Notes: generated by a model not told the origin, from the sequence alone. A DNA stretch of 51,318 bases from an uncultured Bacteroidales bacterium (GCA_934725785.1 CAKVCS010000001.1:1-51318); one strand, 5' to 3'. Positions 12,532 to 45,283 are shown, counted from the stretch's first letter. Made by a program: numbers and translations.

Positions 12532-12544
12532 GTGCTTATGTTTT

Positions 12545-14902: not shown

Positions 14903-14917
14903 GTGTCCTCTGTCGTT

Positions 14918-17821
14918 TTATCGTTTGTCTTGCTTTGTGCGCAATTTAATCTCGCTCTCCACGAGGCTCGCTGTAGCCTCGTACACATCGTTGTGGCTCT
15001 CCAAGGCGTCAACCTCCTCTGGGTTCATATTGGGGTATGCGTACATGTCCTTGTATCGGCTGTTTCCAATGCCTCTGAGGCTGTCGAGAGTCTCTTTTAC
15101 GAAGTCTGAGCCGCGCTCGTTCTTTATCTCTTTGATTCTCTTTTCAACATCTTTGCGCAAATTGTTCAGCTCAAACTGCTTGTACGCCACGTTACGCCGC
15201 TCCCCAAGGTTTAGGCGGTTGTTGTCTATAGCGTTGCCCTTGTCTGACGTCATCCAATATTGCTTTTTCTCCTTGTCGAAGCGTATAATAGGCAGCCCGT
15301 CTTGCATGGTGAAGCAGAAGGCCTGCGTCCACATGTCGAGTGCTTCGTCAGCCTTCTCGGCTGGCCACATTGAGAACTTCATCGACTCGCGCAATGAGTC
15401 CATTCCCGTATCAATAGAGCACGAGAGGCCGCTTGCCTCGTTCATCCGGCGGTTGTATTCGTCCTCATATGTCTTGAAGTTGTTCACAGCGAAAACAGGC
15501 ACCGAAGACTCCACCATCATGATATACACTCGGTCCTTCTGACGGGTTGATGCGTATTTAGGGTCTGTTATGTCATATTTCAAAGCCGCTTTAACAGAGG
15601 CCTCCTTCATTATCGTGTTTGCTTGGTCTGGTACTCCAACCAGAACCTGGCGCGCACGGTTGACATTCTCTGGCATCTTGCCGTGGTAGTTTATTGTCCA
15701 CATGGGGGTGGCCAGGTCGAGGATATATTTTGCGTTGCGGATGACGTTCTCTGTCCCCATTTCTGTTAGAACCTCCTCTATGTTCTTGCTCAGCGCTGCC
15801 GACACGGGCTGCGTGGTGCCCGCATAGTGCATCACCCTGTTGGCCGTCTCGCTTGTCGACTCCTTAAGCCACTCTGTAAGGCTGCGACCCGACGGCATCG
15901 AGTCCGATGTGCAGAAGTCGTTCCACATCTGTTGGCTGATGGCGGGGTTTATGCCGTTCAACGCGTTAATGTGCAGGTATACCTGGAATTTCGATTTTGG
16001 TCTGCACGAGTTGCGCAGTCTCACCACTTCGCTGTCAAATTCGCCGCCTATCTGCCTCATTATCTCCATCTTGGCTGCCACCAACGCCTTGTAGGCTGCC
16101 ACGTCCTCCTTAAGCTTTGTGTAGAACAGGATGGCCAGCTGATGCCTCTTCAGGTCCATCGTGTCGCGTATGCGCGAGTTCACGGTGTTGCTCAAGTCCT
16201 CGGCCTCGTCGCTCAGGAATCGTCCGAACAGCCCGTGACACCCCGCCAACTCTTTGATCCAGTCGGGACACTCCCTCAGCCTGGCCTCCAACTCTTTGCT
16301 CTCGCTCACCATCTCGCCGAGACACGAGTCCATTAGGGCGTCCAGCGCCGTCAGGAACGCTGCCGAGGCTGCCAGTCCGCCGCCCGCGGGGTCGCATATG
16401 ATTTTGCGGATTTCCTTCTCGAGCAGCCGCTGCGTGTTGGCGAGCTTGCTTGCGCAGTTCGCCTCGGGGGCCGTGTCGCTGCTGGCCATGTTGAGACGGT
16501 TCACGATGTCGTCCGCCTCCGTCCCCTTCTCCACCTCGAAGGGGCGCAATGCGCCGAGGTCGCATATGGCGTCGGTGACGTCGTCGTGCAGGTGGCCGCC
16601 GTTCTCCCTTATCTTCACGTCCTCGCGGTCCACGAAGTTGTCGCACAGGGTGGATCCCACCTTTTCCGTGTTTAGCAGTTTGTTCGTCAGCCGCTCCGCC
16701 ACGGCGTAGGCCGTAGCGATGCCCATGGTGTCACTGTCATACACCAGCTCGGCCGCGCTCAACGAGTTAGCCCAGGCGCATTTTTGTGATATTTTGAAAT
16801 TTATGTGGTTTGCTATTATGTTATCCTTCATCTCGTCAGCATGATCTCCCATGTCGCCCGATGGAAGGAAGGCACATTTTGCCACGTTATCCAGTAGGTC
16901 GTCAAGCCCATTGAACGTGTTGCCGGAACTGCTGACGTTGTTTATCAAGTATGCGAATTCGAACGGCTTATCCGTTATTGTGTTGTTGCCGAATGGTATT
17001 AGTTTTTTCGCCGCGTCTTTCCCGTCGAAATTACCGAATATGAAGTCGAGGTCGCGCAGGGTGCCGTAGGTGTTGTAGTTGACGTTGAACGATCCAGTAG
17101 GTGTTATTTGCTTGTATATGTCTGGCATAACAACCCACGGTATCACGAGGCAGTCGTTCGTCATTCCGAGGCTTTTCTTTACCCTGTCTATCATTAATAG
17201 CACGTCTATCAGCATTCCGGACCCTGTGCCTCCACTCATAGAGCAAATGACGTTGACGGTTGTTTTGGACGGTATGCCAGGCTGCTTTCCCTGTCCCAGC
17301 TGGTATTTGGAGTCGGGAGGAAGTGGTTCGCGTGTGTAGTTCAGGGCGTTTAATATGCGAATTTCTATCTCCTTTCGGTTATATCTGGCAATGAAGCATC
17401 CGCTTGAGCGTACCTGTCCCGCACCTGTGCTCTTTATTGCGCCCAGAGCGCCCACATTATCGAATGGATCTTTCGGCATCCAGGTGAATTCCGACTCTTG
17501 GCTGCGGTATATCTCAAGCGCGTTTTGAACCGTGACGCACTTTATCTCGCTTGCCGACAGGCGCACCTCGCGGCTCTTTATCTCCTTCACGTTGGTCACC
17601 TTGCCGTCGACGACCGAGTATGTCACCCCGTTGGCGTCGTTGCCCGCCTTGGCTACGGCCAGGTTGCCTATGCCGTCCTGCGTGTCTATCGCCAGGAAAC
17701 CAATCATAGGCTGCGGAATCTCGCCATACGCGTCTATGAAGTGCCTCTTTATCTTTACGAGTGTCTTCGCTCCAGTGCCGCCAATGCCCACGTAGAGCGT
17801 CCTGTTTATGCTTATCGCCAT
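14918..17821 (-). CDS. tubulin/FtsZ-superfamily GTPase (Tubulin_2-like), 967 aa
   Basis: N-terminal LYVGIGGTGAKT (T1-like glycine loop), STGAGQVR, and the tubulin signature SMSGGTGSGM (GGTGSG encoded at 17216-17233). Confidence 0.75.
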   Translation of the reverse strand: MAISINRTLYVGIGGTGAKTLVKIKRHFIDAYGEIPQPMIGFLAIDTQDGIGNLAVAKAGNDANGVTYSVVDGKVTNVKEIKSREVRLSASEIKCVTVQNALEIYRSQESEFTWMPKDPFDNVGALGAIKSTGAGQVRSSGCFIARYNRKEIEIRILNALNYTREPLPPDSKYQLGQGKQPGIPSKTTVNVICSMSGGTGSGMLIDVLLMIDRVKKSLGMTNDCLVIPWVVMPDIYKQITPTGSFNVNYNTYGTLRDLDFIFGNFDGKDAAKKLIPFGNNTITDKPFEFAYLINNVSSSGNTFNGLDDLLDNVAKCAFLPSGDMGDHADEMKDNIIANHINFKISQKCAWANSLSAAELVYDSDTMGIATAYAVAERLTNKLLNTEKVGSTLCDNFVDREDVKIRENGGHLHDDVTDAICDLGALRPFEVEKGTEADDIVNRLNMASSDTAPEANCASKLANTQRLLEKEIRKIICDPAGGGLAASAAFLTALDALMDSCLGEMVSESKELEARLRECPDWIKELAGCHGLFGRFLSDEAEDLSNTVNSRIRDTMDLKRHQLAILFYTKLKEDVAAYKALVAAKMEIMRQIGGEFDSEVVRLRNSCRPKSKFQVYLHINALNGINPAISQQMWNDFCTSDSMPSGRSLTEWLKESTSETANRVMHYAGTTQPVSAALSKNIEEVLTEMGTENVIRNAKYILDLATPMWTINYHGKMPENVNRARQVLVGVPDQANTIMKEASVKAALKYDITDPKYASTRQKDRVYIMMVESSVPVFAVNNFKTYEDEYNRRMNEASGLSCSIDTGMDSLRESMKFSMWPAEKADEALDMWTQAFCFTMQDGLPIIRFDKEKKQYWMTSDKGNAIDNNRLNLGERRNVAYKQFELNNLRKDVEKRIKEIKNERGSDFVKETLDSLRGIGNSRYKDMYAYPNMNPEEVDALESHNDVYEATASLVESEIKLRTKQDKR

Positions 17822-17846
17822 AGGGTTTATGTTTTTTCCTTTCTCT

Positions 17847-18770
17847 TTATGACAGTTGTATCTTGTTCTTCGTCGTGTTGTCCGTCGCCGTCAGTGGTGC
17901 GTCACTGTACTGCGTCTTGCTCGCCGAGAGCGTGAACCCTCCCCCGGCCACCCTTATTTCCTTGCGGCCGCGCCGTCCGGGCTTCATCCGCAGGGTGCTG
18001 GTGAACGCCGGAGACGTCACGCAGAGTGTCCTCCCCGTGAAGAAAGCGGAGGCCAGGCTCTGCTTGGCAGCCCTGCTCGTCAAGACGACCTCGGCGAAGC
18101 CGCCCATCCTGACAGTCTTGGGCCCATATATGATGCGCCCCGCCTGGTCGGTCACGACCACGCTCTTGCGGGCCGTCGGGCCGAACGTCCGCCTGTGGAG
18201 CGCCAGGCGAGCAAGGAAGATGACGGCGGCCATGGCGCACAGGGTTATTAGCTGCCCCTTGGCAAGGGGGTTCATGTCCTTGTCGAAGTATATTGTCCAT
18301 TGCATCAGCTTCGCGCCCTCGCTCGCCTCCATGCCGTTGACGCAGGCCATGCCGTGCGGCCGCATGACGAGGTAGCCCTGGTGCTTGCCCCCCTCGGCCT
18401 TGGGCAGGAAGCGGAAGCCCACCCCGACCTCGCGCGTCCTCCCCCCGTCCGCCGCCGATATGCTTATCACGTTGCCGCTGGCGCGACGGCCGTCAATGGT
18501 CACCTCGAGCACGTCTTCCGGGACGGGCGCGCCATCATTGTCTGTCACCACGAGGTCCACCGCCGCTCCGTCATTCACCGCGTCGTCGTTGAAGGTCAAG
18601 GCCATCCTCTTCACGAGGCTTGTGGTGTCGGCGTCCGACCACAGGAAGCCGTCGTGCCAGCTCGTCGTGCCGAGCGTCACTCGCTCCATGCCGTCGTCTT
18701 CCGAACACGAGGCCGCTGTCGAGGCCGTGATGGCCGCGACGGCCATCACGCGCAGAATCTTGGTGCTCAT
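17847..18770 (-). CDS. lipoprotein-like bitopic membrane protein
   Basis: Lipobox-like signal AITASTAASC|SEDD, an internal TM segment LITLCAMAAVIFLARLAL, and a basic C-terminal tail. In the same operon. Confidence 0.55.
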   Translation of the reverse strand: MSTKILRVMAVAAITASTAASCSEDDGMERVTLGTTSWHDGFLWSDADTTSLVKRMALTFNDDAVNDGAAVDLVVTDNDGAPVPEDVLEVTIDGRRASGNVISISAADGGRTREVGVGFRFLPKAEGGKHQGYLVMRPHGMACVNGMEASEGAKLMQWTIYFDKDMNPLAKGQLITLCAMAAVIFLARLALHRRTFGPTARKSVVVTDQAGRIIYGPKTVRMGGFAEVVLTSRAAKQSLASAFFTGRTLCVTSPAFTSTLRMKPGRRGRKEIRVAGGGFTLSASKTQYSDAPLTATDNTTKNKIQLS

Positions 18771-18802
18771 CTTGCTCTGTGTGGGTGTTTTTTCGTGGGG
18801 TG

Positions 18803-19789
18803 TCAGTCTTTGAACGAGATGTTCACGGTGGGGTAGTGCTTGTTTATGCAGCGGATCTCAATTGCCTTGCTCAGCAGGAACGTGAAGCGCGGCAGCCCCT
18901 GAGCCTCGGCCTCTATCGTCCACAGGTGATCTTCGGGAGGGTCCGCTGTGAGCTTCCGGGCGTACAGGCGGATGGCTTTGCCGCCGTCTTCCGTGGTCAC
19001 CGTCTCCTGGCGTGCTATGGCATACAGCTCGTCGTCCGACTTGAGCGTTATCTTCGCCCCGCCCGGGTCGCCGTCTATGGCTATGTCCACGTGATCCCCG
19101 TCTCTCACGGCGTAGACCGTCGAGTGCCTCAGCTTCACGTGGTTGATGTTCACGTCGGCCGTCTCCACCGTCCACAGCTGGGCGTCTTGCCTCTCCACCT
19201 CGCGCTCTATGTCCTTGGCGGCGGCGGCCCCGGTCAGCATCACGTAGAATCCGTAGCTCGTGGGGCTGGTGCTGCGCTCCCACCTGCCTATGGCGTCGAA
19301 TAGTCTGCCGCGGGTCTGCGAGAAGTTGGCCCCGTCGGTCATCAGGTAGAAGTATGTGTCGCCTTTGCGCTTGCCATAGTTGCTATAGAAGTCGTCGAAG
19401 GGGACGTATATCTCGGTGTGGCAGTCGTCCTCGAGCTTCAGGCCGTCCACGAATTTGCAGATGGCCTCTTTGCCCTCGGCTGTCGCCCTTTCCTTTTTGC
19501 GTGTCAGCTTGTGCCCGCTGTCGGTCCACGCCACCACCTCGAGCGTGGCCGTCTCGTCGTTCACGTTGCGAATGGCGCGTTTCAGGTTGCCCGTCACTTC
19601 GCCCCATATCGGCTTCATGGATCCCGTCACGTCCAGGTAATACGCCCTTGCCTCCACGCCTTGAGCGCAGGCCGCCCCAGGGAAGGAGGCCGCTGCCAGC
19701 GTCGCCGCGGCGCATGCGCCGAAGATTGCCGCCTGTCCGCGTCTTTTTGCGAGTGCGGCAAGGGCTCGCAGTGTGTGTTTCCGAGGCAT
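18803..19789 (-). CDS. secreted von Willebrand factor A (vWA) domain protein (TerY-like)
   Basis: The start is set at ATG 19787-19789 (MPRKHTL...). Signal-like AAIFGACAAATLAAASFPGAACA|QG, followed by a MIDAS-like YYLDVTGSM. Confidence 0.6.
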   Translation of the reverse strand: MPRKHTLRALAALAKRRGQAAIFGACAAATLAAASFPGAACAQGVEARAYYLDVTGSMKPIWGEVTGNLKRAIRNVNDETATLEVVAWTDSGHKLTRKKERATAEGKEAICKFVDGLKLEDDCHTEIYVPFDDFYSNYGKRKGDTYFYLMTDGANFSQTRGRLFDAIGRWERSTSPTSYGFYVMLTGAAAAKDIEREVERQDAQLWTVETADVNINHVKLRHSTVYAVRDGDHVDIAIDGDPGGAKITLKSDDELYAIARQETVTTEDGGKAIRLYARKLTADPPEDHLWTIEAEAQGLPRFTFLLSKAIEIRCINKHYPTVNISFKD

Positions 19790-19810
19790 GGAGATTCTGG
19801 TTTTGTGTTC

Positions 19811-19850
19811 TTCACAAATTTCAATAAAAAAAAACACTATCCAAATTTTA
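19811..19850 (-). promoter_or_regulatory. Bacteroides-type promoter for the six-gene operon (TTTG - GTG T9 spacer - GAAATTTG)
   Basis: The minus strand reads AAAATTTGGATAGTGTTTTTTTTTATTGAAATTTGTGAA. The -7-like box (19815-19822) lies 26 nt before the ATG. Confidence 0.45.
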
Positions 19851-26786: not shown

Positions 26787-26991
26787 ATGCGTGGCGTCTT
26801 TTTGTGGTGGGGAGGGAGGCGTAGCGCCCCGTCACGCAAATATAGCGTCTTTTCCGCCCGAATGGAATGCCGCGGCAGCCGTTTGCCGCGTCTTCTTCGG
26901 CGGCGCGCCCGTTTTTCCCCCGCGGCGGCGTCGGGGCGGGGTGATCCGCCGCGGGGTGACCTGCGGGCGCGATGCAGCCGCCTGTGAAAGA

Positions 26992-27022
26992 TTTTGATAG
27001 TGTTTTTTTTTGTATACTTTCG
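26992..27022 (+). promoter_or_regulatory. Bacteroides-type promoter for the island operon (TTTG - GTG T9 spacer - TACTTTCG)
   Basis: TTTTGATAGTGTTTTTTTTTGTATACTTTCG, with TTTG at 26993-26996 and a -7-like box at 27015-22 (one mismatch to TAnnTTTG). Confidence 0.4.
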
Positions 27023-27102
27023 TGAAATATAATTTAACGCCACAGGGTGTCGCCAGGTGGCTACGTGTGAGAGGAAAATAAAGGAAGAAGATAATTAGTG
27101 CC

Positions 27103-27960
27103 ATGGAGGCAAACAGCGGTATAAAATGCACATTCTCTGGTCATGAAACTTTTACCTGTAAGTCAATATGGCTGAAGAAAGGCTATGACTTTGTAAAGGA
27201 TGGTCACTCTTTTAGCGATGAGGAGGCTGTGGTTGTTTTGGGAGTGGGCAAGAATATGGTGAGTTCCATAAGGTATTGGCTCCGCGCTTTTGGGCTCATA
27301 AATCAAAGCGGCGAGTTATTGCCTCTGGCCGACTTCATTTTTGACACCGAAACAGGGCGTGACCCGTTTGTGGAAGATGTGCAGACCCTGTGGCTGTTGC
27401 ATTGGAACTTGATATACAGCAACTACGCCAGTCTCTACAGATATGTTTTCCTAAACTTTCACAAAGAGCGCAAGATGTTCAATAAAGAGAACATCTTCAA
27501 ATTTTTGAGACGCAAGAATGACGAAAAGCCATTCGGCGGGGGCGTTTGGAACGATAATACTATAAGCAAGGACATAGCGATGCTTCTCCGTATGTACGTT
27601 TCTCCAAACGGCAGCCAGAACGATGACTATTGCGCTACGTTGATCGATCTGAATTTGATTAGGAGGGTTGGCAAGGACTCTTATGAGTTCAATTATCCCG
27701 CAAAAGCAAAAATCAGCCCGTTGACATTTCTCTATGCTGTCAACAAAATTTCAAACGGCAGCCAAGTAGTCGAATTTGACAAGCTTTTGGAGCTTGCTCT
27801 TATATTTTGTTTGTCGCAGGGCGAGCTGTATGACATATTCAGCCGGCTTACGGAAATCAATCCAAACATTTCATTTGTCAACTCCGCAGGGGAGCAGTTG
27901 TTCGCCGTCAAACAGGATTTCAACGGGTTTGACATTCTCGACATGTATTATAAATCGTGA
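27103..27960 (+). CDS. DUF4007-like protein (SspB-like candidate)
   Basis: N-terminal FSGHETFTCKSIWLKKGYDFV matches my recollection of the DUF4007 N-terminal motif (GHETF...WLxKGY). 285 aa. First gene of the island. Confidence 0.55.
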   Translation: MEANSGIKCTFSGHETFTCKSIWLKKGYDFVKDGHSFSDEEAVVVLGVGKNMVSSIRYWLRAFGLINQSGELLPLADFIFDTETGRDPFVEDVQTLWLLHWNLIYSNYASLYRYVFLNFHKERKMFNKENIFKFLRRKNDEKPFGGGVWNDNTISKDIAMLLRMYVSPNGSQNDDYCATLIDLNLIRRVGKDSYEFNYPAKAKISPLTFLYAVNKISNGSQVVEFDKLLELALIFCLSQGELYDIFSRLTEINPNISFVNSAGEQLFAVKQDFNGFDILDMYYKS

Positions 27961-30900
27961 TGACGATGAAGTTCTCAACATCTGTAAACATTGAGCGAGA
28001 CTGCGGCAAGGGGTTTGATTACGTTGTTACAGCCAATGCGAAACAGGCAATTGGCAAAATTGTTAATCAGTTCTCTGTTGGAATCCATTCTTTCTGTTTG
28101 ATTGGCTCCTACGGAACGGGCAAGTCGAGTTTCCTGCTGGCTTTAGAGCAATGTATGCTATGCTCTCGGCCTTTACCGAGCCAACTTATGACCAACAAAG
28201 GGCAGTTCAATGGATTTACCAAGTTCCGATTCATTAACATAGTTGGCGATTATACTCCGCTGGGAGGATTGCTTGATGCGCACTTACGGCATGAAAAGTT
28301 TCAAGGAGGCAATTTTTTCGAGACGCTTGACGGCCTTTACGCCGAATGCCAAAAAGACGACACATTCCTTGTTTTCGTAGTTGACGAATTCGGCAAGGTG
28401 CTTGAATACGCCGCCAAAAATAATCCGGAAAAGGAAATGTACTTTTTGCAGAAATTCTGCGAATATGTCAATGACACAGATAAGAATATCCTTTTCCTTG
28501 CTACTCTCCACCAAGCTTTTAGCGCATACGCTAAAGATTTAAGGCTTGAGCAAAAGCAGGAGTGGGCGAAAGTAAAAGGCCGCATCGCCGACATCGTTTT
28601 TAAGGAGCCTGTCGAGCAGTTGCTAAATCTCGCTGCGACTAAAATCTCGCGGGAGAGGGGGGGGGCGCGGAGTGTGGCCTGTAGACAGCTTTATGAGTTG
28701 GCACTCACGTCCAGGTTCATCAATGATAGCCTCAAGTCTGATGTCGCGCTGGCTCTGTACCCTATGGATATTTTTGCCGCATACGCTCTAACGGAGGCCA
28801 ATCAGCGTTACGGGCAGAATGAGAGAAGTCTGTTTACTTTCTTAGAATCGAGGGGCGAAGGCTCTATCTCTGACTTTTCACCATCTGGCAATACCCTTTT
28901 CAGCCTCGTCAATGTTTATGACTATGTACGTTACAATTTTTATTCATCATTGACCGAGGTAAATGCCGATTCTTCCAAGTGGTCGGCAATTCTTACTGCA
29001 ATTGAGCGTATAGAGGGGCTTCCCCTTGCGGAGGAGGAGGTAAAAACGGCTGTCTCAATTGTCAAGGTTATCGGGATGCTCAACATTTTTGCTTCTTCGG
29101 CGACAAAAATTGATTCCGATTTCCTTGCGTCATATGCCCGGCTTTCGTTGGGAATTAAGGACGTTCTGCCTTTGCTGGGCAAGTTGCAAAGGGCGCAGAT
29201 TGTCCGTTTTGCGAAATATAAATCGAAATATATACTGTTTGAGGGTACTGATGTCGACATTGAGTTTGGGCTTTATATTGCTTCGCTCGAGTGTAAACGT
29301 TCCGATGACTATGTCGACAAACTGAGGCGGTTTTTCCCTCACCACATTCGCCTCGCGAATGCCCATTTATACCGGACCGGAACGCCCCGATATTTCGAGT
29401 ACCAGATATCGGGCGAACCCGTCAACAAGTCGCCTCATGGTGAGACTGACGGCATTGTCAACCTTATCTTTACAAGGGAGGACGAGTTGCCAGCAATCAA
29501 AGCCAGATGCCTTTCAGTCAAAGGTATGGCTGTCGTTTATTGCATTTTTCGAAATGCGCCGGAGGTGACTGACCATGTTTACAACATAGAGAAATTGCAT
29601 TGGGTAAGGGATTATTTCGTCAAGGATGAAAACGACAAGGTGGCGAATAATGAGATAGAAAGCCTTGTTGAATACGAAGAGTCACTGCTGAGCAAGTCAA
29701 TATTCGACAGTCTCTATTCTGACAAGGTCATGTGGGTTTTCAACGGTGAACCCGTTGACGGAATACATTCCCACAAGGACTTGATGAAGTTCATTTCCTT
29801 AGTTTCCGACCGGGTTTACTATTCAACGCCTGTTTTCAGAAATGAGTTGATAAACAGACAACGCCCGAGCGGGACAATGTCGGTTGCACGGCAGAATTAC
29901 CTGAACGCTTTGCTGGAAAACTCCGATAAGCCTGACATCGGATTTGACAAGGGCAAATTTCCGCCGGAAAAGTCAATATATCTCACAATGTTGAGAAGCA
30001 CAGGGATTCACGTCCCTGCGGGCGACTCGTTCACTTTTTGCGAACCATCAGAGCCGTCTTTCAAGGAGCTGTGGAAATGTTGCATGGAGTTTATCAAGTC
30101 AGCCCGGCAGAAGCGGAGAAAAATCAGTGAGCTTGTCACTTTGCTTTCACAAGCTCCGTTCGGAATGAAGAAAGGTTTTATCGATTGGTGGGTTCCGTCT
30201 TTTCTCATAATTAAGAAAAATGATTTTGCGCTCTATAGTGGAGATGCTTATGTGCCGTTCATAAATAAAGATGTTCTTGGTCTGCTCTATCGCAACCCTA
30301 ATGACATATCTGTGAAGTCTTTCAGTGTAGAGGGCGTGAAGCAGGTGTTTTTTCAAAAATATAGGGAGGCTGTGAATCTGGGGAAGTCTGAATTGAACTC
30401 TAATTCATTCGTAGAGACAATTCGTCCTATCTTAACATTCTACAGGCACTTGAACCCTTATGCCCAAAACACAAGAGATATTCCTACCGAGGCCAGGAAA
30501 TTTCGTGACGTCATTTCGCGAGCAACGGATCCCGAGGTGACATTCTTCGATCAGCTGCCCGAAGCCTTGGGTTTCCGACAGGATGTCATGGTGCGCAACC
30601 CGGAGTCGGTTGATAGTTTTGTCTCTGTTTTGCAAAATGCGATCAGGAGTCTGAGGGGCTGTTACGATGATTTTGTTCGCTCGATTGAACGCCATATCCT
30701 CAATGCGCTCAAGGTCAATGAGAATGAGTTTCCCGCATACAAGCCCATTGTCGATGGTCGGTATAAGTCTGTCAAGGCGGAATTGATGCCCAACGATGTA
30801 AGGACTTTCCACTTGCGACTGACCGGAAGCTATGACAATTATAAAGAGTGGGTCGAGTCGATATCCTATGCGGTTCTCAACAAGCCCCTTGAGAAAATCA

Positions 30901-31178
30901 AGGATGCGGAGAAGACGTTCTTGCTCACTTCGTTGACAGACAAACTTTTCCAGCTCGATGATTATGTAGAGATGCACAAAACTGACAACGAGTCTATTGT
31001 CCGTCTGCATATTACTCAAAATAGAGGAGCGGCAATAGCGAAACAAGTGGTTATCCCGAGCCATAACATCAAAGAGGTTGACCGGTTGGAGAAACGGATT
31101 GAAGATGTGCTCTCATCCGACAACGCCATCAATATGGCAGCTCTTATCAATATGATAAAAAGAAAGTGTAATGGATAA
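27957..31178 (+). CDS. large P-loop NTPase, 1073 aa (SspC-like candidate)
   Basis: Walker A GSYGTGKSS (28104-28130) and Walker B-like FLVFVVDEFGK. The start is GTG 27957 or ATG 27960, overlapping the upstream stop. Confidence 0.6.
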   Translation: MMTMKFSTSVNIERDCGKGFDYVVTANAKQAIGKIVNQFSVGIHSFCLIGSYGTGKSSFLLALEQCMLCSRPLPSQLMTNKGQFNGFTKFRFINIVGDYTPLGGLLDAHLRHEKFQGGNFFETLDGLYAECQKDDTFLVFVVDEFGKVLEYAAKNNPEKEMYFLQKFCEYVNDTDKNILFLATLHQAFSAYAKDLRLEQKQEWAKVKGRIADIVFKEPVEQLLNLAATKISRERGGARSVACRQLYELALTSRFINDSLKSDVALALYPMDIFAAYALTEANQRYGQNERSLFTFLESRGEGSISDFSPSGNTLFSLVNVYDYVRYNFYSSLTEVNADSSKWSAILTAIERIEGLPLAEEEVKTAVSIVKVIGMLNIFASSATKIDSDFLASYARLSLGIKDVLPLLGKLQRAQIVRFAKYKSKYILFEGTDVDIEFGLYIASLECKRSDDYVDKLRRFFPHHIRLANAHLYRTGTPRYFEYQISGEPVNKSPHGETDGIVNLIFTREDELPAIKARCLSVKGMAVVYCIFRNAPEVTDHVYNIEKLHWVRDYFVKDENDKVANNEIESLVEYEESLLSKSIFDSLYSDKVMWVFNGEPVDGIHSHKDLMKFISLVSDRVYYSTPVFRNELINRQRPSGTMSVARQNYLNALLENSDKPDIGFDKGKFPPEKSIYLTMLRSTGIHVPAGDSFTFCEPSEPSFKELWKCCMEFIKSARQKRRKISELVTLLSQAPFGMKKGFIDWWVPSFLIIKKNDFALYSGDAYVPFINKDVLGLLYRNPNDISVKSFSVEGVKQVFFQKYREAVNLGKSELNSNSFVETIRPILTFYRHLNPYAQNTRDIPTEARKFRDVISRATDPEVTFFDQLPEALGFRQDVMVRNPESVDSFVSVLQNAIRSLRGCYDDFVRSIERHILNALKVNENEFPAYKPIVDGRYKSVKAELMPNDVRTFHLRLTGSYDNYKEWVESISYAVLNKPLEKIKDAEKTFLLTSLTDKLFQLDDYVEMHKTDNESIVRLHITQNRGAAIAKQVVIPSHNIKEVDRLEKRIEDVLSSDNAINMAALINMIKRKCNG

Positions 31179-32277
31179 GGTAAGGCATGTGCTGGGAATC
31201 TCCGGAGGCAAGGACAGTGCGGCGTTGGCAATATATTTGAAAGACAAATATCCGGCGCTCGGCATAGACTTCTACACTTGTGACACGAAATGCGAATTGG
31301 CGGAAACAGAGCAACTCGTTGAGAGATTGCGTTCTTATTTGGGTAGGATTACGACGCTCCAAGCTGCCAAGGGAAGTCCGGAACCTACGCCTTTCGACCA
31401 TTTCCTGAAGATTAATGGCGGTTTTCTGCCTTCTGTTCAGCAGAGGTGGTGCACACAGAAAATGAAACTTGCGGAGTTCGAAAAGTATGTAGGCGACGAT
31501 CCCGTGGTCTCCTATGTCGGCATACGTGGCGATGAGGACCGAGATGGCTATGTCTCCTCAAAACCTAATATTCAGTCAGTTTTCCCGTTCCGCAGGAACA
31601 TATGGAGCATCGATGTCATAAACAAGGTCTTGAGCAACGATAACATTAGCAAGTTCAGCGAATGCTATCGCTCCGTTGCCGATACCCGGACTTTTGATGA
31701 GGCCAACAAGGTCCTCACCGCCAAGCTTACAAAGGATTTCTTCTACTCTAAGAAGCTCAATGCGTTGCTCGATATTGACATAAGGGCCTTTAATCACGCC
31801 ACTTTCTGCTTCCTTAAGGAATATACCGATTACCCCGTCGGCAGGTTGGATAATTTCCCTCTGCTTGACAATGAGGATGTCCTCTGTAAAGAGGACATTT
31901 TCAGGATATTGGAGGATAGCGGGGTCGGCGTCCCCGCCTATTACAAACTCATAGATTTTGAGGTGGACGGCAAGACGGGGAAATATTGCCGTAGCCGCTC
32001 AGGATGCTATTTCTGCTTTTTTCAGCAGAAGATTGAGTGGGTTTGGCTCTACGAGCAGCATCCCGACCTGTTTAAGAAAGCGATGGAATATGAAAAAGGC
32101 GGCTACTCTTGGATTCAAGACGAACCTCTTGAAAAACTGATCAGGCCTGAGCGTATACGCCAAATTAAGCTTGACCACATCAAGAAGACCGCGGTTCTCG
32201 AGTCAAAGAACAGAAGCAAGTTACTCATCGACCTGTTCGATGACGACGATGTCAACTGCGCCAATTGCTTTATTTAG
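31171..32277 (+). CDS. PP-loop ATP pyrophosphatase of the PAPS-reductase/DndC/SspD family
   Basis: SGGKDS PP-loop at 31201-31218, QQRWCTQKMK, and the Cys cluster CRSRSGCYFC. There is an 8-nt overlap with the upstream gene. Confidence 0.75.
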   Translation: MDKVRHVLGISGGKDSAALAIYLKDKYPALGIDFYTCDTKCELAETEQLVERLRSYLGRITTLQAAKGSPEPTPFDHFLKINGGFLPSVQQRWCTQKMKLAEFEKYVGDDPVVSYVGIRGDEDRDGYVSSKPNIQSVFPFRRNIWSIDVINKVLSNDNISKFSECYRSVADTRTFDEANKVLTAKLTKDFFYSKKLNALLDIDIRAFNHATFCFLKEYTDYPVGRLDNFPLLDNEDVLCKEDIFRILEDSGVGVPAYYKLIDFEVDGKTGKYCRSRSGCYFCFFQQKIEWVWLYEQHPDLFKKAMEYEKGGYSWIQDEPLEKLIRPERIRQIKLDHIKKTAVLESKNRSKLLIDLFDDDDVNCANCFI

Positions 32278-34554
32278 ATGCTGAAGGGGGTAGAGTTTCC
32301 ATCTCATCGACGTTTTAAGTCGCGGACGGAGTGGGAGCCAATAGGTTTCTTCTCCGACTGCCTCTGTAATGCGACCCAGTTCAACCTGATGCTCGGTTTC
32401 TTTTCCTCATCCGCCATAAACGTACTCGCCGACGGCTTCGCTTTCTTCATCTCCAATGGGGGCCGTATGAATCTGGTTATAAACGACATCCTAACTCAGC
32501 AAGACAAAAATGCCATAGCCGTCGGTGAGTATGCCAAGCCCATCCCTTTTTTTGACATACACGACGTCGAAAGGTTGAAAGCGACGCTGTCCGTGCGGGA
32601 CTCGCATTTTTTCGATTGCATAGCGTGGCTCATACGCAATAATCGTATTGACATAAAGATTGTCGCGCCAAAGGGCGGGGTGGGGATTTCTCACACCAAG
32701 ATGGGTGTTTTCTGTGATGGTGCGAACAAAGTGGGTTTTGACGGATCTTGTAATTTCTCGCGGTCGGCATTGGTGGACAATATCGAGAGTCTCACGGTGT
32801 GCTGCGATTGGGACGGTAACACTGCATCCGCAACCATAGACAGGCTGAGCGATGAGTTCGATCTTGTCTTCTCAGGCAATGATGATAGTGTTGTTTTTGT
32901 GCCCACCGATAAGGTTAAGACCAGTGTCACCGAGTTGTTTAAGGACAAGACTATAGACGAATTGCTTGAAGACGAATACAAATTGATTAAGCACGACTGT
33001 GCAAAATCTGCGCTGCCAGACTCGGTGATAAAGGCTCTGGCAAAAGCCAAGATGAAGATAGAGACCGCGATAGAGATGGGCAAATCAAAGTACGAAGTAC
33101 AGAACGTCGAGTCGATAGGCCTTGTTAAGCCTTGTTTCCCCTATGCGTCCGGCCCTCGCGAATACCAAAAGCAGGCATTCCTGAATTGGAAGAACAATAA
33201 GCAGAAAGGCTTGTTCGCGATGGCGACTGGCACGGGTAAAACCATTACTTCACTAAATTGCCTTCTCGAGATATACAAGAGGTTAGGTTATTACAAAGCT
33301 ATCATTCTTGTACCGACAATAGCGCTTCTTGACCAATGGGAAGCCGAATGCCGTAAGTTTAATTTCCGGACGGTTATAAAAGTTTGCTCCAAGGCCAGTG
33401 ATTGGAAATCGCAGGTAGCGCATATACGTCTGCTCGAAATGACGAACCCCGACAACGATTTATCATACGTTGTTATATCAACATATGCGTCATACGTAAG
33501 GTCTAATGTCTTTAACGAGCTGAACCATTTTACAAAAAACAAGCTCCTGTTGATAGCCGATGAGTGTCATAATATGGGTGGCGGGTTGATGGCTCAGCGC
33601 ATGCAAGACATTAAATATGTGCGCCGCATAGGTCTCTCGGCAACGCCCGATAGGCAGTCTGATGATGTCGGCAACCGCAAGCTTATGGATTTCTTCGGAT
33701 GTGACGGCGGTTACACTTTCGAGTACTCTATGGCCGATGCCATACAGAACGGTGCTTTGTGCCGTTACTACTATTATCCGCACGTAGTTCGACTGACAGA
33801 GAGTGAGATGTCCGACTACGTCGAGCTTTCAAAGGCGATAGTCAAACTCCTTGGGATCAAAGATGACACAGGTCAGGACCGCCTTAAAATGCTAATGCTG
33901 AAACGTAAACGCATAATACATAAGGCGGCCAACAAGCTGCCCATTTTTCAGCAAATAATCGAGCAAAGAATCAAGGAGAAAGGGAATCTGAAATACGCTT
34001 TGGTCTACGTGCCCGAGGGAGACAGGCCTGACAATTACGAGGCTGAAATATCAGATTTGGATGATTCGGGTTGCTCTGATCACGATACAGAGCATCTCAT
34101 TGACGATTTCACTCGGATTGTGCGCGATATTGATTCTCATATTACAGTCCGTAAGTTCACGTCTGTTTCTTCCGACAGAGACGCAATGCTGAAGGATTTC
34201 GCCTCCGGCGCAATCGATGTACTTGTATCAATGAAGTGTTTAGACGAGGGTGTTGACGTCCCGCGAAGTGAGTTGGCCATATTTTGCGCAAGTACGGGAA
34301 ACCCGCGGCAGTTCATACAGCGTCGCGGCCGTGTGCTAAGAACTCATAAAGATAAGCGCTTCGCCGTCATTCACGACCTCGTCGTTGTGCCCGACAATGT
34401 TTTCAATCATGATTGCTATGCTTATGAGAAAAATTTGGTTCAAGCCGAGTTGAGCCGAGTGCGTGATTTTGCGTTGCTCTCAGAGAACATTACCGATACG
34501 GTCAATGAATTGTCCGATGTGTTGCGGCGTTACAATTTGTCCATATTTGAATAG
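32278..34554 (+). CDS. PLD-family (HKD) nuclease domain fused to an SF2 DEAD/DEAH-type helicase
   Basis: HKD-like SHTKMGVFCDG...GSCNFSRSAL (HTK at 32692-32700). Helicase motif I is MATGTGKT (33220-33243), motif II is DECH (33559-33570), motif III is SATP, and motif VI is QRRGRVLR. Confidence 0.8.
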   Translation: MLKGVEFPSHRRFKSRTEWEPIGFFSDCLCNATQFNLMLGFFSSSAINVLADGFAFFISNGGRMNLVINDILTQQDKNAIAVGEYAKPIPFFDIHDVERLKATLSVRDSHFFDCIAWLIRNNRIDIKIVAPKGGVGISHTKMGVFCDGANKVGFDGSCNFSRSALVDNIESLTVCCDWDGNTASATIDRLSDEFDLVFSGNDDSVVFVPTDKVKTSVTELFKDKTIDELLEDEYKLIKHDCAKSALPDSVIKALAKAKMKIETAIEMGKSKYEVQNVESIGLVKPCFPYASGPREYQKQAFLNWKNNKQKGLFAMATGTGKTITSLNCLLEIYKRLGYYKAIILVPTIALLDQWEAECRKFNFRTVIKVCSKASDWKSQVAHIRLLEMTNPDNDLSYVVISTYASYVRSNVFNELNHFTKNKLLLIADECHNMGGGLMAQRMQDIKYVRRIGLSATPDRQSDDVGNRKLMDFFGCDGGYTFEYSMADAIQNGALCRYYYYPHVVRLTESEMSDYVELSKAIVKLLGIKDDTGQDRLKMLMLKRKRIIHKAANKLPIFQQIIEQRIKEKGNLKYALVYVPEGDRPDNYEAEISDLDDSGCSDHDTEHLIDDFTRIVRDIDSHITVRKFTSVSSDRDAMLKDFASGAIDVLVSMKCLDEGVDVPRSELAIFCASTGNPRQFIQRRGRVLRTHKDKRFAVIHDLVVVPDNVFNHDCYAYEKNLVQAELSRVRDFALLSENITDTVNELSDVLRRYNLSIFE

Positions 34555-34560
34555 TGCTAT

Positions 34561-34794
34561 ATGAGTGTGTATCAAACCAAAGATGATAGAATGTTGCAAG
34601 CCGTCATATCAGACGAGCGACTTGTCAACTACTATGGCTACAATCCTAATGACTTCACGTCTATGTCTGACGCCTTAAATTCCGATGTGGTTATAGTTCA
34701 GGCTATTGCCAAAATCATCGATAAATCTGGTCAAGGGTGCAGCGTCACGGAAATTTATAATGAGGTAAGAGATTTGCTAACGGCGAAGATATGA
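34561..34794 (+). CDS. 77-aa hypothetical protein
   Basis: Shares the island's AT-rich composition. Its stop overlaps the next start (ATGA at 34791-34794), which suggests translational coupling. I recognised no motif. Confidence 0.5.
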   Translation: MSVYQTKDDRMLQAVISDERLVNYYGYNPNDFTSMSDALNSDVVIVQAIAKIIDKSGQGCSVTEIYNEVRDLLTAKI

Positions 34795-36965
34795 TTTTAA
34801 AAGAGCTGAAAATAAAAAACTTCCGAAGCTACTATGGCTATAATACCCTTTTATTTTCCAAGGGGCTGACGCTTGTTATTGGCGACAATGGAGATGGGAA
34901 AACAACGTTGTTCGAGGCTTTGGAGTGGTTGTTCAATACAACTGGTGCCCCCCAAAAAGAATCAAACATCTCCGAAATGCGAAAGTCTGAGTTGGAAATT
35001 GGGGAAAGTGATGAGGTATCTGTCTCCTTAAGCTTTGAGCATGACGGACATAAAGAAGTTGAAAAGTCTTTTACTTTCGAGAGGGAGTTAGGCGGCAATA
35101 TTAGCCTTAGGGACTATAAGTTCGTCGGATATTGTATTGATGGCGTTGAACGTTCTCGTACCGAGGGTGCCAAGCTTTTGGACAGATGTTTTGAGCCTGT
35201 AATCCGCACATACTGTTTGTTCAAGGGAGAGAATAAGCTCAACGTTTTTGAAACCCCTGACGCCCTTAAGACATTGGTTGAGACATTCTCAGGTATAAAA
35301 GACTTTGATAAAAAGGTTGACCTTACAAAAAGTTTTGAGGAGAAAGCTGCCAATGTGGTCAGCAAAGCTCTGCAAAACGACAATAAAGTGTCGAAGCAGA
35401 CGAAAGAGCTTACCGATAGAAGAACAGCTCTTTTAAACGAGATACAAGAAATTAAAATTGAGTTAAAAGAAAAGAGAAAGTCAATCGACTGGTATTCTTC
35501 CAAATTGCAGGAATTGGAAAGTAATCAGGACCTCTCAGAGCGCTATCAGCACTTGAAGGTTCGCATAAAAGGATTAGAAGATAAACGTGCTGGTTTAGCC
35601 AAACATGTGAAATGCGACTACAATGCAAAATTATTGGACGAATCATGGATCCTGCGTTCCTTTCCATCTGTCATGAGCGACTTCTCTGCAAAAGTCTCTG
35701 CGTTGAGCAAGGCGAAGAGGAGACTTGATAAGCAAGAGACAGAAAGGCGTGCTATGGCCGATGGCAAGCGTGAGGCTTACACGCAAATTCAGAAACTTGT
35801 AAATGATACAGTCCCACTGCCTTGGAACTTGCCAGACGAACAAACGATGAAGGAGATGATTGACGATGAGGTTTGTAAGGTTTGCGGACGGCCTGCGCCT
35901 AAAGGCTCTGAACCATATGAGTTTATGCGCCATAAACTGCAGGACTATCTTGACCACGTAAAGGCAGAGGCGAATAAGAAATCAAATGATTCTCAAGAGG
36001 AAGAGAAACCTCTGTTCGTCAATTCATTCATTGATGAGTTGCATTCTTTACAAATCAAATTTAGTGGAGACGAGGAGATTGCGGTCGCAAACACAGCAAG
36101 GAAAATTAGTGAGGAGTTAGAGTTCATAAACGCAAGAAAACTTCAGTATAATGAAGTCGATACGCAGCTGAACGATTTGGAAACAGAGGCAAACAACATG
36201 ATATTGCAGTCAGGATTAAGTGATGAACTGTTGTCGAAGAATTTTTCGGATTTAATAGGTTTTTTTGACTCTAAGAGTCATGCGGAAAGGCGCATGACGG
36301 AGTTGGAGGCAGAACTTAAGTCCAAGGAGGAGGAAGTCGAGCGAGTTAAGGAAGCATTGTCACAACTTGAGCCAGAAAGTACTATGACCCAGGTATTGCA
36401 ACGTGTTCATCAAGCTTTTGAAAATATTAGCAAGGCCTTCGAAAATGCCAAAACTCAGAACATTAACAAGTTCCTGCAGATGCTCGAGTCCAAATCAAAT
36501 GAGTATCTTCAAAAATTGAATGAAGGAGACTTCTATGGGGTAATCCATATCTGGAAGTCTATGGGAGACTCTGCGCATATAGAGCTTTGCAGTAAAAATG
36601 GAACACGCATTGAGAACCCCAATGGTGCGCTTAAGACGACAATGTACATGTCTGTCCTCTTCGCGATTTCTGAAATTACAACATTGAAAAGGGAGAAGGA
36701 CTATCCTCTAATCTTTGATGCGCCTACCTCTTCTTTCGGCAGTTTTAATAAGGAGCGTTTCTACAATGTCATCGACTCTATCGACAAGCAGTGCGTTATA
36801 TTCACAAAGGACTTGCTCAATGTAGATAAAGAGACAGGACTGAAAGAGGTTGACTGCCAGACAATCGATAAACTCTCTTGCCCCGTCCTGCGCATCGAGA
36901 AGGTTCTGCCGTTCAACGATAAGGATTTGTCTACTGTTCGAACTGTCATAAAGATAATAAGGTAA
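34791..36965 (+). CDS. SMC/Rad50/DndD-like ABC ATPase with a central CxxC hook
   Basis: N-terminal LKIKNFRSY...VIGDNGDGKTT (Walker A at 34881-34907), long coiled-coil arms, CKVCGRP at residues 362-368 of 724 (35874-35894), and a C-terminal Walker B YPLIFDAPTSSF. Confidence 0.75.
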   Translation: MILKELKIKNFRSYYGYNTLLFSKGLTLVIGDNGDGKTTLFEALEWLFNTTGAPQKESNISEMRKSELEIGESDEVSVSLSFEHDGHKEVEKSFTFERELGGNISLRDYKFVGYCIDGVERSRTEGAKLLDRCFEPVIRTYCLFKGENKLNVFETPDALKTLVETFSGIKDFDKKVDLTKSFEEKAANVVSKALQNDNKVSKQTKELTDRRTALLNEIQEIKIELKEKRKSIDWYSSKLQELESNQDLSERYQHLKVRIKGLEDKRAGLAKHVKCDYNAKLLDESWILRSFPSVMSDFSAKVSALSKAKRRLDKQETERRAMADGKREAYTQIQKLVNDTVPLPWNLPDEQTMKEMIDDEVCKVCGRPAPKGSEPYEFMRHKLQDYLDHVKAEANKKSNDSQEEEKPLFVNSFIDELHSLQIKFSGDEEIAVANTARKISEELEFINARKLQYNEVDTQLNDLETEANNMILQSGLSDELLSKNFSDLIGFFDSKSHAERRMTELEAELKSKEEEVERVKEALSQLEPESTMTQVLQRVHQAFENISKAFENAKTQNINKFLQMLESKSNEYLQKLNEGDFYGVIHIWKSMGDSAHIELCSKNGTRIENPNGALKTTMYMSVLFAISEITTLKREKDYPLIFDAPTSSFGSFNKERFYNVIDSIDKQCVIFTKDLLNVDKETGLKEVDCQTIDKLSCPVLRIEKVLPFNDKDLSTVRTVIKIIR

Positions 36966-36970
36966 CCAAT

Positions 36971-37489
36971 ATGTCCGATAGTTTATTCGATTTGTGGGCC
37001 AGGAGAGACCCGCAGTGGGAGAAAAGGTATGAGGATAACATAGTCAAGAAATTCTGCGACTATGGCCGAGGGGCCACCTCTTTGCGCGAGGATAGGGGTA
37101 AGCTCTTTGGCTCTGGATATGAAATATACATTGTTGCATTTTTCATTGGCTTGTATAACAACCAGAGGCGACAGCTTGTCGATGATGCAAAAAAGCGTAA
37201 GAGTTTTGGACACCCAATTCAAAATTGGGGGAATATAACTGCTTCAGTTGCGAATGGCAGGAAACCTTACCCCAAACTGCGTAAGTTTATTTTCATAGCT
37301 CTCATAGCTCGTGCCGACATTGATTTCATCGCACTTGAAGAAGGCGATATTAAGCCAGCCAAGGCTGTCGATATGTTAGTACAGCTGATGGAGGAATACG
37401 CCAATTGGGGCTTCCATTTTATTGAGGATAAGATGGAGGACGACGCAAATTATTTTTTCGTGAAACTGCTTTCCTCGAAGTCTTTTTAG
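36971..37489 (+). CDS. 172-aa hypothetical protein (last island gene)
   Basis: Island-like composition, 5 nt after the preceding stop. Notable segments are GYEIYIVAFFIGLY and MEEYANWGFHF. I could not assign a family with confidence. Confidence 0.5.
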   Translation: MSDSLFDLWARRDPQWEKRYEDNIVKKFCDYGRGATSLREDRGKLFGSGYEIYIVAFFIGLYNNQRRQLVDDAKKRKSFGHPIQNWGNITASVANGRKPYPKLRKFIFIALIARADIDFIALEEGDIKPAKAVDMLVQLMEEYANWGFHFIEDKMEDDANYFFVKLLSSKSF

Positions 37490-37606
37490 GTTTTGACGCA
37501 CCAGACGGCAAAAGAACGGATGACGGTGAGCCCGAATCGTTAGACTGAGAGGATGATTAAGCTGCTCATCTCGTTACATATAATCTCGTAGCATTCTAAA
37601 AACCAC

Positions 37607-37644
37607 GAAGCCGGGCGGCGAGGACACTCTCGCCGCCCGGCTTC
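37607..37644 (-). terminator. rho-independent terminator of tRNA-Leu (possibly bidirectional, also closing the island operon)
   Basis: Perfect 16-bp stem GAAGCCGGGCGGCGAG / CTCGCCGCCCGGCTTC with a 6-nt loop. The minus strand continues GTGGTTTTTAG. Confidence 0.75.
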
Positions 37645-37655
37645 TTCAGTTCCCG

Positions 37656-37737
37656 TACCCTGACCCGGGATCGAACCGGGACGGATCGCTCCATTGGTGT
37701 TTGAGACCAACGCGTCTACCAATTCCGCCATCAGGGC
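37656..37737 (-). tRNA. tRNA-Leu (anticodon CAA)
   Basis: The reverse complement folds by hand: acceptor GCCCTGA/TCAGGGT, D-arm GCG-GAATTGGTAGA-CGC, anticodon stem TTGGT/ACCAA with loop CTCAAAC, long variable arm TGGAGCGATCCGT, T-arm CCCGG-TTCGATC-CCGGG, discriminator A. No encoded CCA. Confidence 0.9.
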
Positions 37738-42503: not shown

Positions 42504-43241
42504 CTACATGCACGGCACGCCTGGCGTGGCGATGGCGACAGCCGTGGGGAACAGGGGGAATACGTGGAGCGCATAGCCAAGCACGACAATCGCGAAGCCC
42601 GCGCAAACTATCGTGGCGTACCATACGGCGACGGTCTTCCACCTCGAAAGCCAAATCTCGTTGTTCCATCCGAGTGTCTGCAGCATGCTCCAGAACCCGT
42701 GGGTCAGGTGCAACCATATGGCCACAATCCAGACAACGTAGGCGAGGGCTACCGGCCACTGGCTGAAGTAGTATGCGATGAAGCGGGCGCCCTCGGTGGG
42801 CTTTATTATGCCCATCTCGCCTCCGTCAAACTCGCAGCCGCGCAGCTCGGCGAGCATCATGTGGCTCCAGAACTGGTGCAGGTGCAGGGCTATGCCGAGC
42901 AGGACGATGATGCCAAGGACAAGCATGTTCTGGCTCGACCACTCAACGCCTTTCGGCGCGTCGACAACGGCGTAGCGGTCGTTACCGCGGGCGCGGCGGT
43001 TCTGCACGGTCAGGATGAACGCGTAGACTATGTGCACCAGGAAACCGATGGCGAGCACGGCCGTGCCGGCCAAGGCGTACCAGTTCGTGCCGAGGAACTC
43101 GCACACCGCGTCATATGCGCCGTCCGAGAACGCGGCCACAAGGTTCATGCTCATGTGGAAAAGAAGGAAGAGCACGAGCAATATGCCCGATACGCTCATT
43201 ATCAACTTCTTCCCAATGGACGATTGGAAAATACAGCTCAT
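42504..43241 (-). CDS. frdC: fumarate reductase/succinate dehydrogenase cytochrome b subunit (Bacteroides type)
   Basis: SSIGKKLIMSVSGILLVLFLLFHMSMNL. Five-TM pattern. First gene of the C-A-B order. Confidence 0.85.
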   Translation of the reverse strand: MSCIFQSSIGKKLIMSVSGILLVLFLLFHMSMNLVAAFSDGAYDAVCEFLGTNWYALAGTAVLAIGFLVHIVYAFILTVQNRRARGNDRYAVVDAPKGVEWSSQNMLVLGIIVLLGIALHLHQFWSHMMLAELRGCEFDGGEMGIIKPTEGARFIAYYFSQWPVALAYVVWIVAIWLHLTHGFWSMLQTLGWNNEIWLSRWKTVAVWYATIVCAGFAIVVLGYALHVFPLFPTAVAIATPGVPCM

Positions 43242-45239: not shown

Positions 45240-45283
45240 CCGGCTCGCCCCGACCCTCGCCAACCGGACGGCCACAAAAGCTG

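Follow-up and report, generated by a model that had tools for sequence, protein, structure and literature searches.

The window analyzed here, a 51,318-nt stretch of DNA from an uncultured Bacteroidales bacterium (GCA_934725785.1 CAKVCS010000001.1:1-51318), contains a low-GC island with seven co-directional open reading frames (ORFs) that are coupled, their junctions ranging from an 8-nt overlap to a 6-nt gap (Table 1). The first three match the phosphorothioate (PT) modification proteins SspB, SspC and SspD, and the four that follow resemble the PbeABCD restriction module. We propose, with a probability of roughly 0.7, that the seven genes would together form a PT defense cassette of their Bacteroidales host, in which an sspBCD modification half is joined to a PbeABCD-like restriction half.

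Table 1. The seven-gene cassette and its surroundings; positions are counted from the first letter of the window (aa, amino acids; PLD, phospholipase D; SF2, superfamily 2).
Feature	Position	Strand	Description
Low-GC island	26990–37600		Holds the entire seven-gene cassette; from the composition profile
sspB	27103–27960	+	285 aa; DUF4007; DNA-recognizing and nicking component (role from the published Ssp system)
sspC	27957–31178	+	1073 aa; large P-loop ATPase related to BrxC
sspD	31171–32277	+	368 aa; PP-loop ATP pyrophosphatase, DndC analogue; sulfur-inserting role from the published Ssp system
pbeA-like gene	32278–34554	+	758 aa; HKD (PLD-family) nuclease fused to SF2 helicase/translocase
ORF at the pbeB position	34561–34794	+	77 aa; small, fast-evolving protein
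pbeC-like gene	34791–36965	+	724 aa; coiled-coil ABC ATPase with mid-protein CxxC hook
pbeD-like gene, frameshifted	36971–37548	+	Present ORF 36971–37489, 172 aa
1-nt deletion in the pbeD-like gene	37453–37460	+	Window TAT TTT TTC GTG; relatives TAT TTC TTC CGT
GC-rich hairpin	37607–37644		16 bp, very stable; interval between cassette and tRNA gene
tRNA-Leu(CAA)	37655–37737	−	Right island edge

The stop and start codons of the first three genes overlap, by 4 nt at sspB-sspC and 8 nt at sspC-sspD, and the three are therefore taken as one operon, whose order is kept in related loci. A preliminary description of this DNA had already read the ORFs between 27103 and 32277 as sspB-sspC-sspD, and their coordinates, + strand and profile matches bear it out: SspB matches Pfam DUF4007 (E = 1.3e-73) and PADLOC SspB (E = 2e-82), SspC aligns over its full length with PADLOC SspC (E = 0, 1121 bits, residues 14–1049 on profile positions 2–1038) and SspD matches PADLOC SspD (E = 2e-85). 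The same description called SspD PAPS-reductase-like, which its PADLOC match and its motifs support but Pfam PAPS_reduct does not, staying below its cut-off (E = 0.011, 16 bits against 22.5 bits); DndC profiles reach 5e-4 at best (PADLOC). SspC, classed in the literature as an ORC/Cdc6-type ATPase, matches PADLOC BrxC more weakly (6e-73) than its own profile, and SspB aligns with the solved SspB structure (PDB 6JUF) over its N-terminal ~160 residues only (E = 4e-16).

The motifs quoted in that description, GHETF...WLKKGY in SspB, GSYGTGKSS and VVDEFG in SspC, and SGGKDS, RWCT and Cx6CxxC in SspD, are all present, and alignments of 44–62 orthologs from related loci find them conserved. The SspB signature SGHExF..CK..WLkKGY is kept in 44 orthologs, SspC retains its Walker A (G.YGTGKS) and Walker B (DEFGK) motifs, and 62 SspD orthologs are invariant for SGGKDS and for five cysteines, placed in RWCT (C94), CYFC (C279/C282) and a C-terminal CxxC (C363/C366). 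We start sspC at the GTG codon that overlaps the sspB stop; the metagenome gene calls compared here (scaffold ENA ERZ28613844) begin at 28188, ~77 codons later, giving 996 aa, and the upstream start is supported because the SspC profile aligns from residue 14.

On the claim that no canonical partner follows sspD, the preliminary description was right as to SspE (DUF262+DUF1524), which is absent; neither SspE nor SspFGH nor DndFGH gives a PADLOC or Pfam match in the island or among the other uncharacterized proteins of the window. It missed the downstream half, however: sspD abuts four further coupled genes that constitute a predicted PbeABCD-like restriction module, so assigned because gene order, sizes and profile or sequence matches agree with canonical Dnd-Pbe cassettes, for which RefSeq-annotated Dnd-Pbe plasmids served as the reference. 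The pbeA-like gene begins at the base directly after the sspD stop codon (32277 to 32278), and its product matches PADLOC PbeA over the full length (E = 0, 1053 bits), contains ResIII and Helicase_C domains and hits TIGR04095 dnd_restrict_1 at 1.5e-116, with 390 bits, under the 600-bit cut-off of that model. Its motifs HxK..D..GSxN, GTGKT, DECH, SAT and QRRGR are conserved in 44 orthologs, and it is 29% identical (tblastn, E = 6e-75) to the "DNA phosphorothioation system restriction enzyme" that RefSeq annotates on a Dnd-Pbe plasmid.

The 77-aa ORF, absent from the metagenome gene finder calls, fills the 236-bp gap between the pbeA- and pbeC-like genes exactly, starting 7 nt past the pbeA stop and ending with a stop that overlaps the next ATG. 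Canonical PbeB, of 63–81 aa, sits at the same position in Dnd-Pbe cassettes, and the PADLOC authors report that pbeB and pbeD are frequently missed. No family or profile, PADLOC PbeB included, matches the 77-aa product, as expected of the fast-evolving PbeB; by tblastn, most of 79 related loci have a homolog in this place, with an identity of 30–58% that falls below that of its neighbors. The PbeC-like protein carries Pfam AAA_23 and SMC_N, aligns through its head only with PbeC of a RefSeq Dnd-Pbe plasmid (BLASTP, 5e-16) and bears a mid-protein CKVC (C362/C365), both cysteines of which are kept in 97% of 68 orthologs.

For the pbeD-like gene, the profile of the window's family aligns with the RefSeq "DNA phosphorothioation-associated protein 4", which occupies the PbeD position of the canonical dndCDE-desulfurase-pbe cassette, at an hhalign probability of 83% (E = 9e-6), the two having in common an EEYANgG motif that is also found in a haloarchaeal PbeD-position protein. 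In an AlphaFold2 (AF2) model of the window protein, with a predicted local distance difference test score (pLDDT) of 88.9, the top 4 of 350,542 PDB fold matches are all DndE, at non-significant E-values of 1.1–3.4 and template-modeling (TM) scores of 0.36–0.50 by DndE length. A link to DndE at the level of sequence was tried and rejected. The family profile found nothing among PDB sequences, Pfam DndE matched 0 of 34 divergent family members, and hhalign gave the family a probability of 0.07% against canonical DndE. PADLOC PbeD had no match either, save in 2 of 34 remote relatives (E = 0.011). In NCBI records, several proteins of the family, P0128, P0174 and P0191 among them, are labeled "glycoside hydrolase family 15", which looks like a propagated misannotation.

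The same arrangement recurs elsewhere. Searching species-representative genomes for relatives of the PbeA-like protein yielded 79 loci (given L numbers below), nearly all in Bacteroidota and cultured strains included, onto which we mapped the seven cassette proteins; the 69 loci that extend 5.5 kb or more upstream were informative. In 59 of these, sspC and sspD lie upstream on the same strand, and in 40 of the 59, as in the window, less than 80 bp separates sspD from pbeA. The remaining 19 carry inserts of 1.8–4.8 kb, which make up a variable slot between sspD and pbeA, taken by (i) sspA, in some cases accompanied by a nucleoside 2-deoxyribosyltransferase-like protein and one of 229 aa; (ii) a DndB-family protein and a ~180-aa partner; (iii) a 740-aa HATPase_c protein and two uncharacterized proteins; or (iv) a 547-aa uncharacterized protein, a BrxC/D-like ATPase and a ~276-aa protein. 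Examples of the slot are L077:7780-10008, L012:8200-9998, L020:6419-10001 and L008:5966-9998, and the pair of DndB and small protein also flanks a canonical Dnd-Pbe cassette in L085. Among the ten exceptions, several carry sspBCD on the other side (L051, L062, L083). A predicted SspBCD-PbeABCD-like cassette is widespread in Bacteroidota, where cultured species of oral, gut and environmental origin have it; Alloprevotella tannerae ATCC 51259, Prevotella dentasini JCM 15908, Segatella copri G8, Butyricimonas muris and Flavobacterium chilense LMG 26360 are cultured carriers, of which F. chilense has sspA inside the operon and Prevotella does not.

Several points weigh against uniting the seven genes in one PT defense system. 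The 172-aa pbeD-like protein has no Pfam or PADLOC match, whether to PADLOC PbeD, to Pfam DndE or to any other profile, and its assignment, drawn from one hhalign match and a non-significant fold ranking, is of moderate confidence. The PbeC-like protein matches PADLOC PbeC through its N-terminal head only (1e-21) and LmuB equally well (4e-21), and its hook is to be regarded as a variant form, because it is CxxC where canonical PbeC has CxC (CIC) at the equivalent site. Since the loci were chosen through PbeA, the 86% that pair the two modules are PbeA relatives having Ssp, not Ssp having Pbe, and Pbe-like modules also stand alone, with no ssp genes nearby, in L053 and L056–L058. The correlation of pairwise divergence between SspB, SspC and SspD and PbeA, which itself favors uniting the modules (Spearman 0.74–0.84, as high in 0 of 500 permutations), may owe something to shared phylogeny. 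A comparative study argues in its main text that the modification modules and the restriction modules of PT systems are frequently not coupled in function (PMC10853773). Finally, the restriction arm may be impaired in the window's lineage by a frameshift in the pbeD-like gene, because loss of pbeD abolished protection in an archaeal system (PMC6459918).

This frameshift stems from a 1-nt deletion. The relatives of the pbeD-like protein are ~190 aa long (n = 34 aligned), and the window protein diverges from all of them at residue ~162, replacing a conserved C-terminus of ~30 residues (RETAFLEVFL...DDGEPESLD) that is present in 34 of 34 aligned relatives and is still encoded here, though out of frame, as far as the stop at 37546–37548. 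The allele is probably real and not assembly noise, because three contigs, which stem from at least two samples, encode the identical 172-aa product. In the zero frame, the deletion site reads T TTT TTC. This heptamer is of the classic −1 slippery type, and a −1 slip on it would restore the exact consensus; programmed −1 frameshifting was considered and rejected. The 31 relatives inspected all stay in frame and have no slippery run, and the RNA downstream of the heptamer is no more structured than shuffled sequences (z = −0.42), both of which favor a plain deletion.

A rival reading is that the whole cassette is decaying in this lineage, with restriction inactivated by the frameshift and sspBCD left as a modification-only remnant or as nothing functional at all. 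Each of the four pbe genes was required in the archaeal system (PMC6459918), whereas the present cassette, its pbeD-like tail lost, no longer has all four Pbe genes intact, and the spread of one allele over three contigs and the plain character of the deletion point the same way. On the other side, the remaining cassette genes are intact with their catalytic motifs conserved, residues 1–161 of the pbeD-like protein retain a folded core (pLDDT mostly >90 in the AF2 model), and T TTT TTC could, speculatively, permit occasional −1 slippage to the consensus. We consider decay of the cassette possible, though doubtful, and the foremost competitor of a PT defense cassette made of two cooperating halves.

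The cooperation itself would be denied if two independent systems merely sat side by side in a defense island, an "orphan" PT writer next to a self-contained Pbe-like restriction system that does not read PT. The standalone Pbe-like modules fit this, as do the unrelated genes that the sspD-pbeA slot takes in 19 of 59 loci, the independent occurrence of CxC-anchored systems and the doubt cast on modification-restriction coupling in the main text of PMC10853773, and the 320 of 553 pbeAC pairs (58%) that were called solitary because no dnd genes lie nearby (PMC6459918, 2019). That count, however, is older than the discovery of Ssp. Furthermore, less than 80 bp lies between sspD and pbeA, on one strand, in 40 of the 59 loci, and the two abut with a zero gap in the window. 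The Ssp-PbeA divergence correlation comes near the 0.88–0.95 found within modules; correlations with the ABC ATPase are lower (0.35–0.38), and a published value for DndCD and PbeAC, obtained by a different computation, is 0.107 (PMC6459918). Archaeal Pbe activity, moreover, required PT (PMC6459918). Mere coincidence of two systems thus appears unlikely, and a good deal less probable than decay.

The sulfur supply of the proposed PT cassette was the point that the preliminary description had singled out, and its observation stands: no called gene in the 51-kb window has an Aminotran_5 domain, and a genuine SspA, taken from a related locus, has no tblastn match in the window at 1e-5. The weight given to the absence was misplaced, however. 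The sspBCD genes form a three-gene operon whose sspA may be adjacent, located elsewhere or replaced by iscS (PMC12914056; PMC8092258; PMC12707154), and lack of a neighboring desulfurase is the norm and unremarkable. A different, non-sulfur DNA modification, which that description offered as an alternative, would explain the empty window and the sub-threshold PAPS_reduct score of SspD. It would sit poorly with seven orthologous cassettes, from Chryseobacterium, Flavobacterium, Proteiniphilum and Parafilimonas, in which a genuine sspA (PADLOC SspA 2e-165, Pfam Aminotran_5 6e-86) lies between sspD and pbeA, with the PP-loop and full set of invariant cysteines that SspD retains, and with the PT produced where sspBCD lacks an adjacent sspA: E. 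coli operons of this kind make CpsC PT (PMC8092258), and liquid chromatography–mass spectrometry of gut isolates found sspBCD, with or without sspE, in 32 of 34 strains carrying the CpsC phosphorothioate (PMC12914056). We regard non-sulfur chemistry as highly improbable; the presence of genuine sspA directly after sspD in seven related loci makes sulfur the likely chemistry of the predicted modification.

Membership in BREX (bacteriophage exclusion) type 4 or in Dnd was rejected, their core genes being missing; for BREX type 4 (brxPCZL), which is homologous to Ssp, makes PT in gut Bacteroidales (PMC12914056), shares PAPS-reductase, DUF4007 and BrxC-like ATPase parts with the window, has in BrxP what is in effect an SspB-SspD fusion and explains the BrxC match of SspC and the weak BrxP matches of SspB (5e-6) and SspD (1e-3), a variant at this locus is least credible of all, because SspB and SspD are separate genes and no fused BrxP exists, no BrxZ/PglZ, BrxL or Lon-like protein is found in the island or window, and the Ssp profiles score far above the Brx profiles.

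Within the proposed PT cassette, the recognition components seem to have moved on their own. Window SspB and SspC share 79% and 71% identity with their counterparts in an Alloprevotella sp. (L005) and only about 35–48% with those in all other loci; PbeA stays at 72–75% in several of these loci despite their diverged SspB/SspC (L007–L012, L060), which suggests that the SspB/SspC pair is exchanged between cassettes and that the modified motif is possibly altered thereby. Among species representatives, the closest relative of the cassette as a whole is in Alloprevotella sp. OH1205_COT-284, whose six larger proteins share 67–83% aa identity and whose 77-aa ORF shares 56%, a likeness that would fit transfer from a Bacteroidales lineage of lower GC content.

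GC content is ~0.41–0.48 in the island and ~0.60 in the flanks, with a sharp boundary in the composition profile. Because this ~15-point drop lies beside a tRNA gene, we take the cassette to be of foreign origin and horizontally acquired, a claim that belongs to our overall explanation and would share its probability. Housekeeping genes border the island on both sides, dCache and FKBP genes on the left, where the dCache-domain gene adjoins, and tRNA-Leu, AraC and fumarate reductase on the right. No integrase was found in the island, and no credible pair of attachment (att) repeats lies at its edges; the sole repeat common to both is an imperfect 15-nt pair (27013–27027 and 37451–37465), which was rejected as an att site or target duplication and judged a coincidence because its right copy sits inside coding sequence, on the pbeD frameshift site, and is not kept in relatives. 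The stable hairpin between cassette and tRNA gene probably terminates the tRNA transcript and perhaps the cassette transcript too, and so could act in both directions.

Two other parts of the window drew attention. A run of uncharacterized genes on the − strand at ~10200–19850, where local GC dips to 0.51–0.53, encodes a 967-aa Tubulin_2 protein, a 785-aa domainless protein, TerD, CW_7 and PDDEXK_2 proteins and proteins of 307 and 328 aa; none of these genes has a PADLOC match, and the run might be a further conflict-related or mobile cluster. The lower-GC stretch (0.51–0.54) at ~43000–51318 encodes LRR_5, DUF5675 and DUF6266 proteins and uncharacterized proteins of 569, 309 and ~430 aa, of which the 309-aa protein (49057–49986) gives a weak PADLOC DruC match (E = 3.7e-5).

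We posit that, in the seven-gene PT cassette, persulfide sulfur would be supplied by a housekeeping cysteine desulfurase of the IscS, NifS or SufS type encoded elsewhere. If the roles of the published Ssp system carry over, SspB would recognize and nick the target, SspC would provide ATP-driven scanning and SspD would insert sulfur into the DNA backbone. In studied systems the mark is CpsC(A) on one strand, a precedent that may apply only loosely to the window, whose SspB/SspC allele is otherwise present just in L005 and has ~40% identity to most relatives. The PbeA-like nuclease-translocase, the 77-aa protein, the CxxC-hook ATPase and the PbeD-like DNA-binding protein would make up the restriction half, which, by analogy with DndCDEA-PbeABCD, would read host PT as self and block replication of unmarked invading DNA. 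In the window's own lineage, this half may be weakened or dead through the pbeD deletion, with modification persisting.

Beyond this locus, we lean, somewhat past an even chance, toward SspBCD-PbeABCD being a distinct and widespread type of PT defense, at least in Bacteroidota, in which a Pbe-type effector, marked by its long PbeD and by the variant CxxC hook of its ABC ATPase, reads the single-strand PT of Ssp. If so, Pbe effectors could act on double-strand (Dnd) as well as on single-strand (Ssp) marks, and because one effector family would then serve both, the pairing would amount to a natural experiment in PT sensing by Pbe. Some of the 84% "orphan" sspBCD and some of the 58% "solitary" pbeAC would be each other's missing partners, and the pairing gives a testable answer to part of the orphan problem. 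In the 2021 SspFGH paper, 83.9% of 2,678 sspBCD modules were called unaccompanied, the partners sought being sspE and sspFGH only; three loci listed as "non-existing / non-existing" in its Table S2, in Prevotella dentasini JCM 15908 (NZ_BAKG01000012.1, L025), Bacteroidales bacterium KHT7 (NZ_FNBQ01000006.1, L027) and Flavobacterium chilense LMG 26360 (NZ_LSYT01000006.1, L021), carry the Pbe-like cassette after sspD. The matter bears on phage resistance in gut and oral microbiomes and on barriers to genetic manipulation of Prevotella and Segatella.

Reviews, PMC12707154 among them, list the PT systems Dnd-DndFGH, Dnd-PbeABCD, TdpABC, SspBCD-SspE and SspBCD-SspFGH, and PbeABCD, a published PT-dependent antiviral module, has so far been paired only with Dnd. 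In the full-text literature searched, with the supplementary tables of PMC10853773 and subscription-only papers lying outside this scope, no Ssp-Pbe compound name occurs, and papers that name both pbeABCD and sspBCD never pair the two. The SspBCD-PbeABCD pairing is therefore apparently undescribed; its parts are all known, and the locus is an incremental recombination of known modules that introduces no new principle.

Compared with SspABCD-SspE and SspBCD-SspFGH of Vibrio, E. coli and Streptomyces, the cassette has the same modification genes in the same B-C-D order, and like E. coli 3234/A and V. anguillarum FF-93 it has its desulfurase outside a three-gene sspBCD operon, but the partner is neither SspE nor SspFGH and is instead a four-gene Pbe-like module. 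Like the cassette, the CxC ABC-ATPase/DndE-anchored conflict systems classified by the Aravind laboratory combine a nuclease of the HKD-SF2 kind with a small protein that evolves fast, a coiled-coil ABC ATPase bearing a Zn-hook (putative in the cassette) and a small DNA-binding partner. The main text of PMC10853773 characterizes PbeA as an HKD nuclease with an SF2 helicase, PbeB as small and fast-evolving, PbeC as a CxC ABC ATPase and PbeD as a DndE cognate; it has such systems "mix and match" with modification modules, yet the associations that it describes are with DndD-centered PT modules and cytosine methylases, and sspBCD goes unmentioned in it. The cassette differs from DndCDEA-PbeABCD (Haloterrigena jeotgali A29; Pontibrevibacter plasmid NZ_CP049815) in that its writer is SspB/SspC with no DndC, DndD or DndE, its hook is CxxC in place of CxC, its pbeD-like gene is frameshifted and belongs to a family of ~191 aa against the canonical 143–152, and its PbeA is just ~29% identical to Dnd-linked PbeA. 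The two nevertheless agree in the order and sizes of the effector genes, in an HKD nuclease joined to an SF2 helicase, in a protein of ~65–80 aa, in a coiled-coil ABC ATPase of ~650–720 aa with a mid-protein Cys hook, in the small EEYANgG protein and in the placement of the entire effector module downstream of PT genes.

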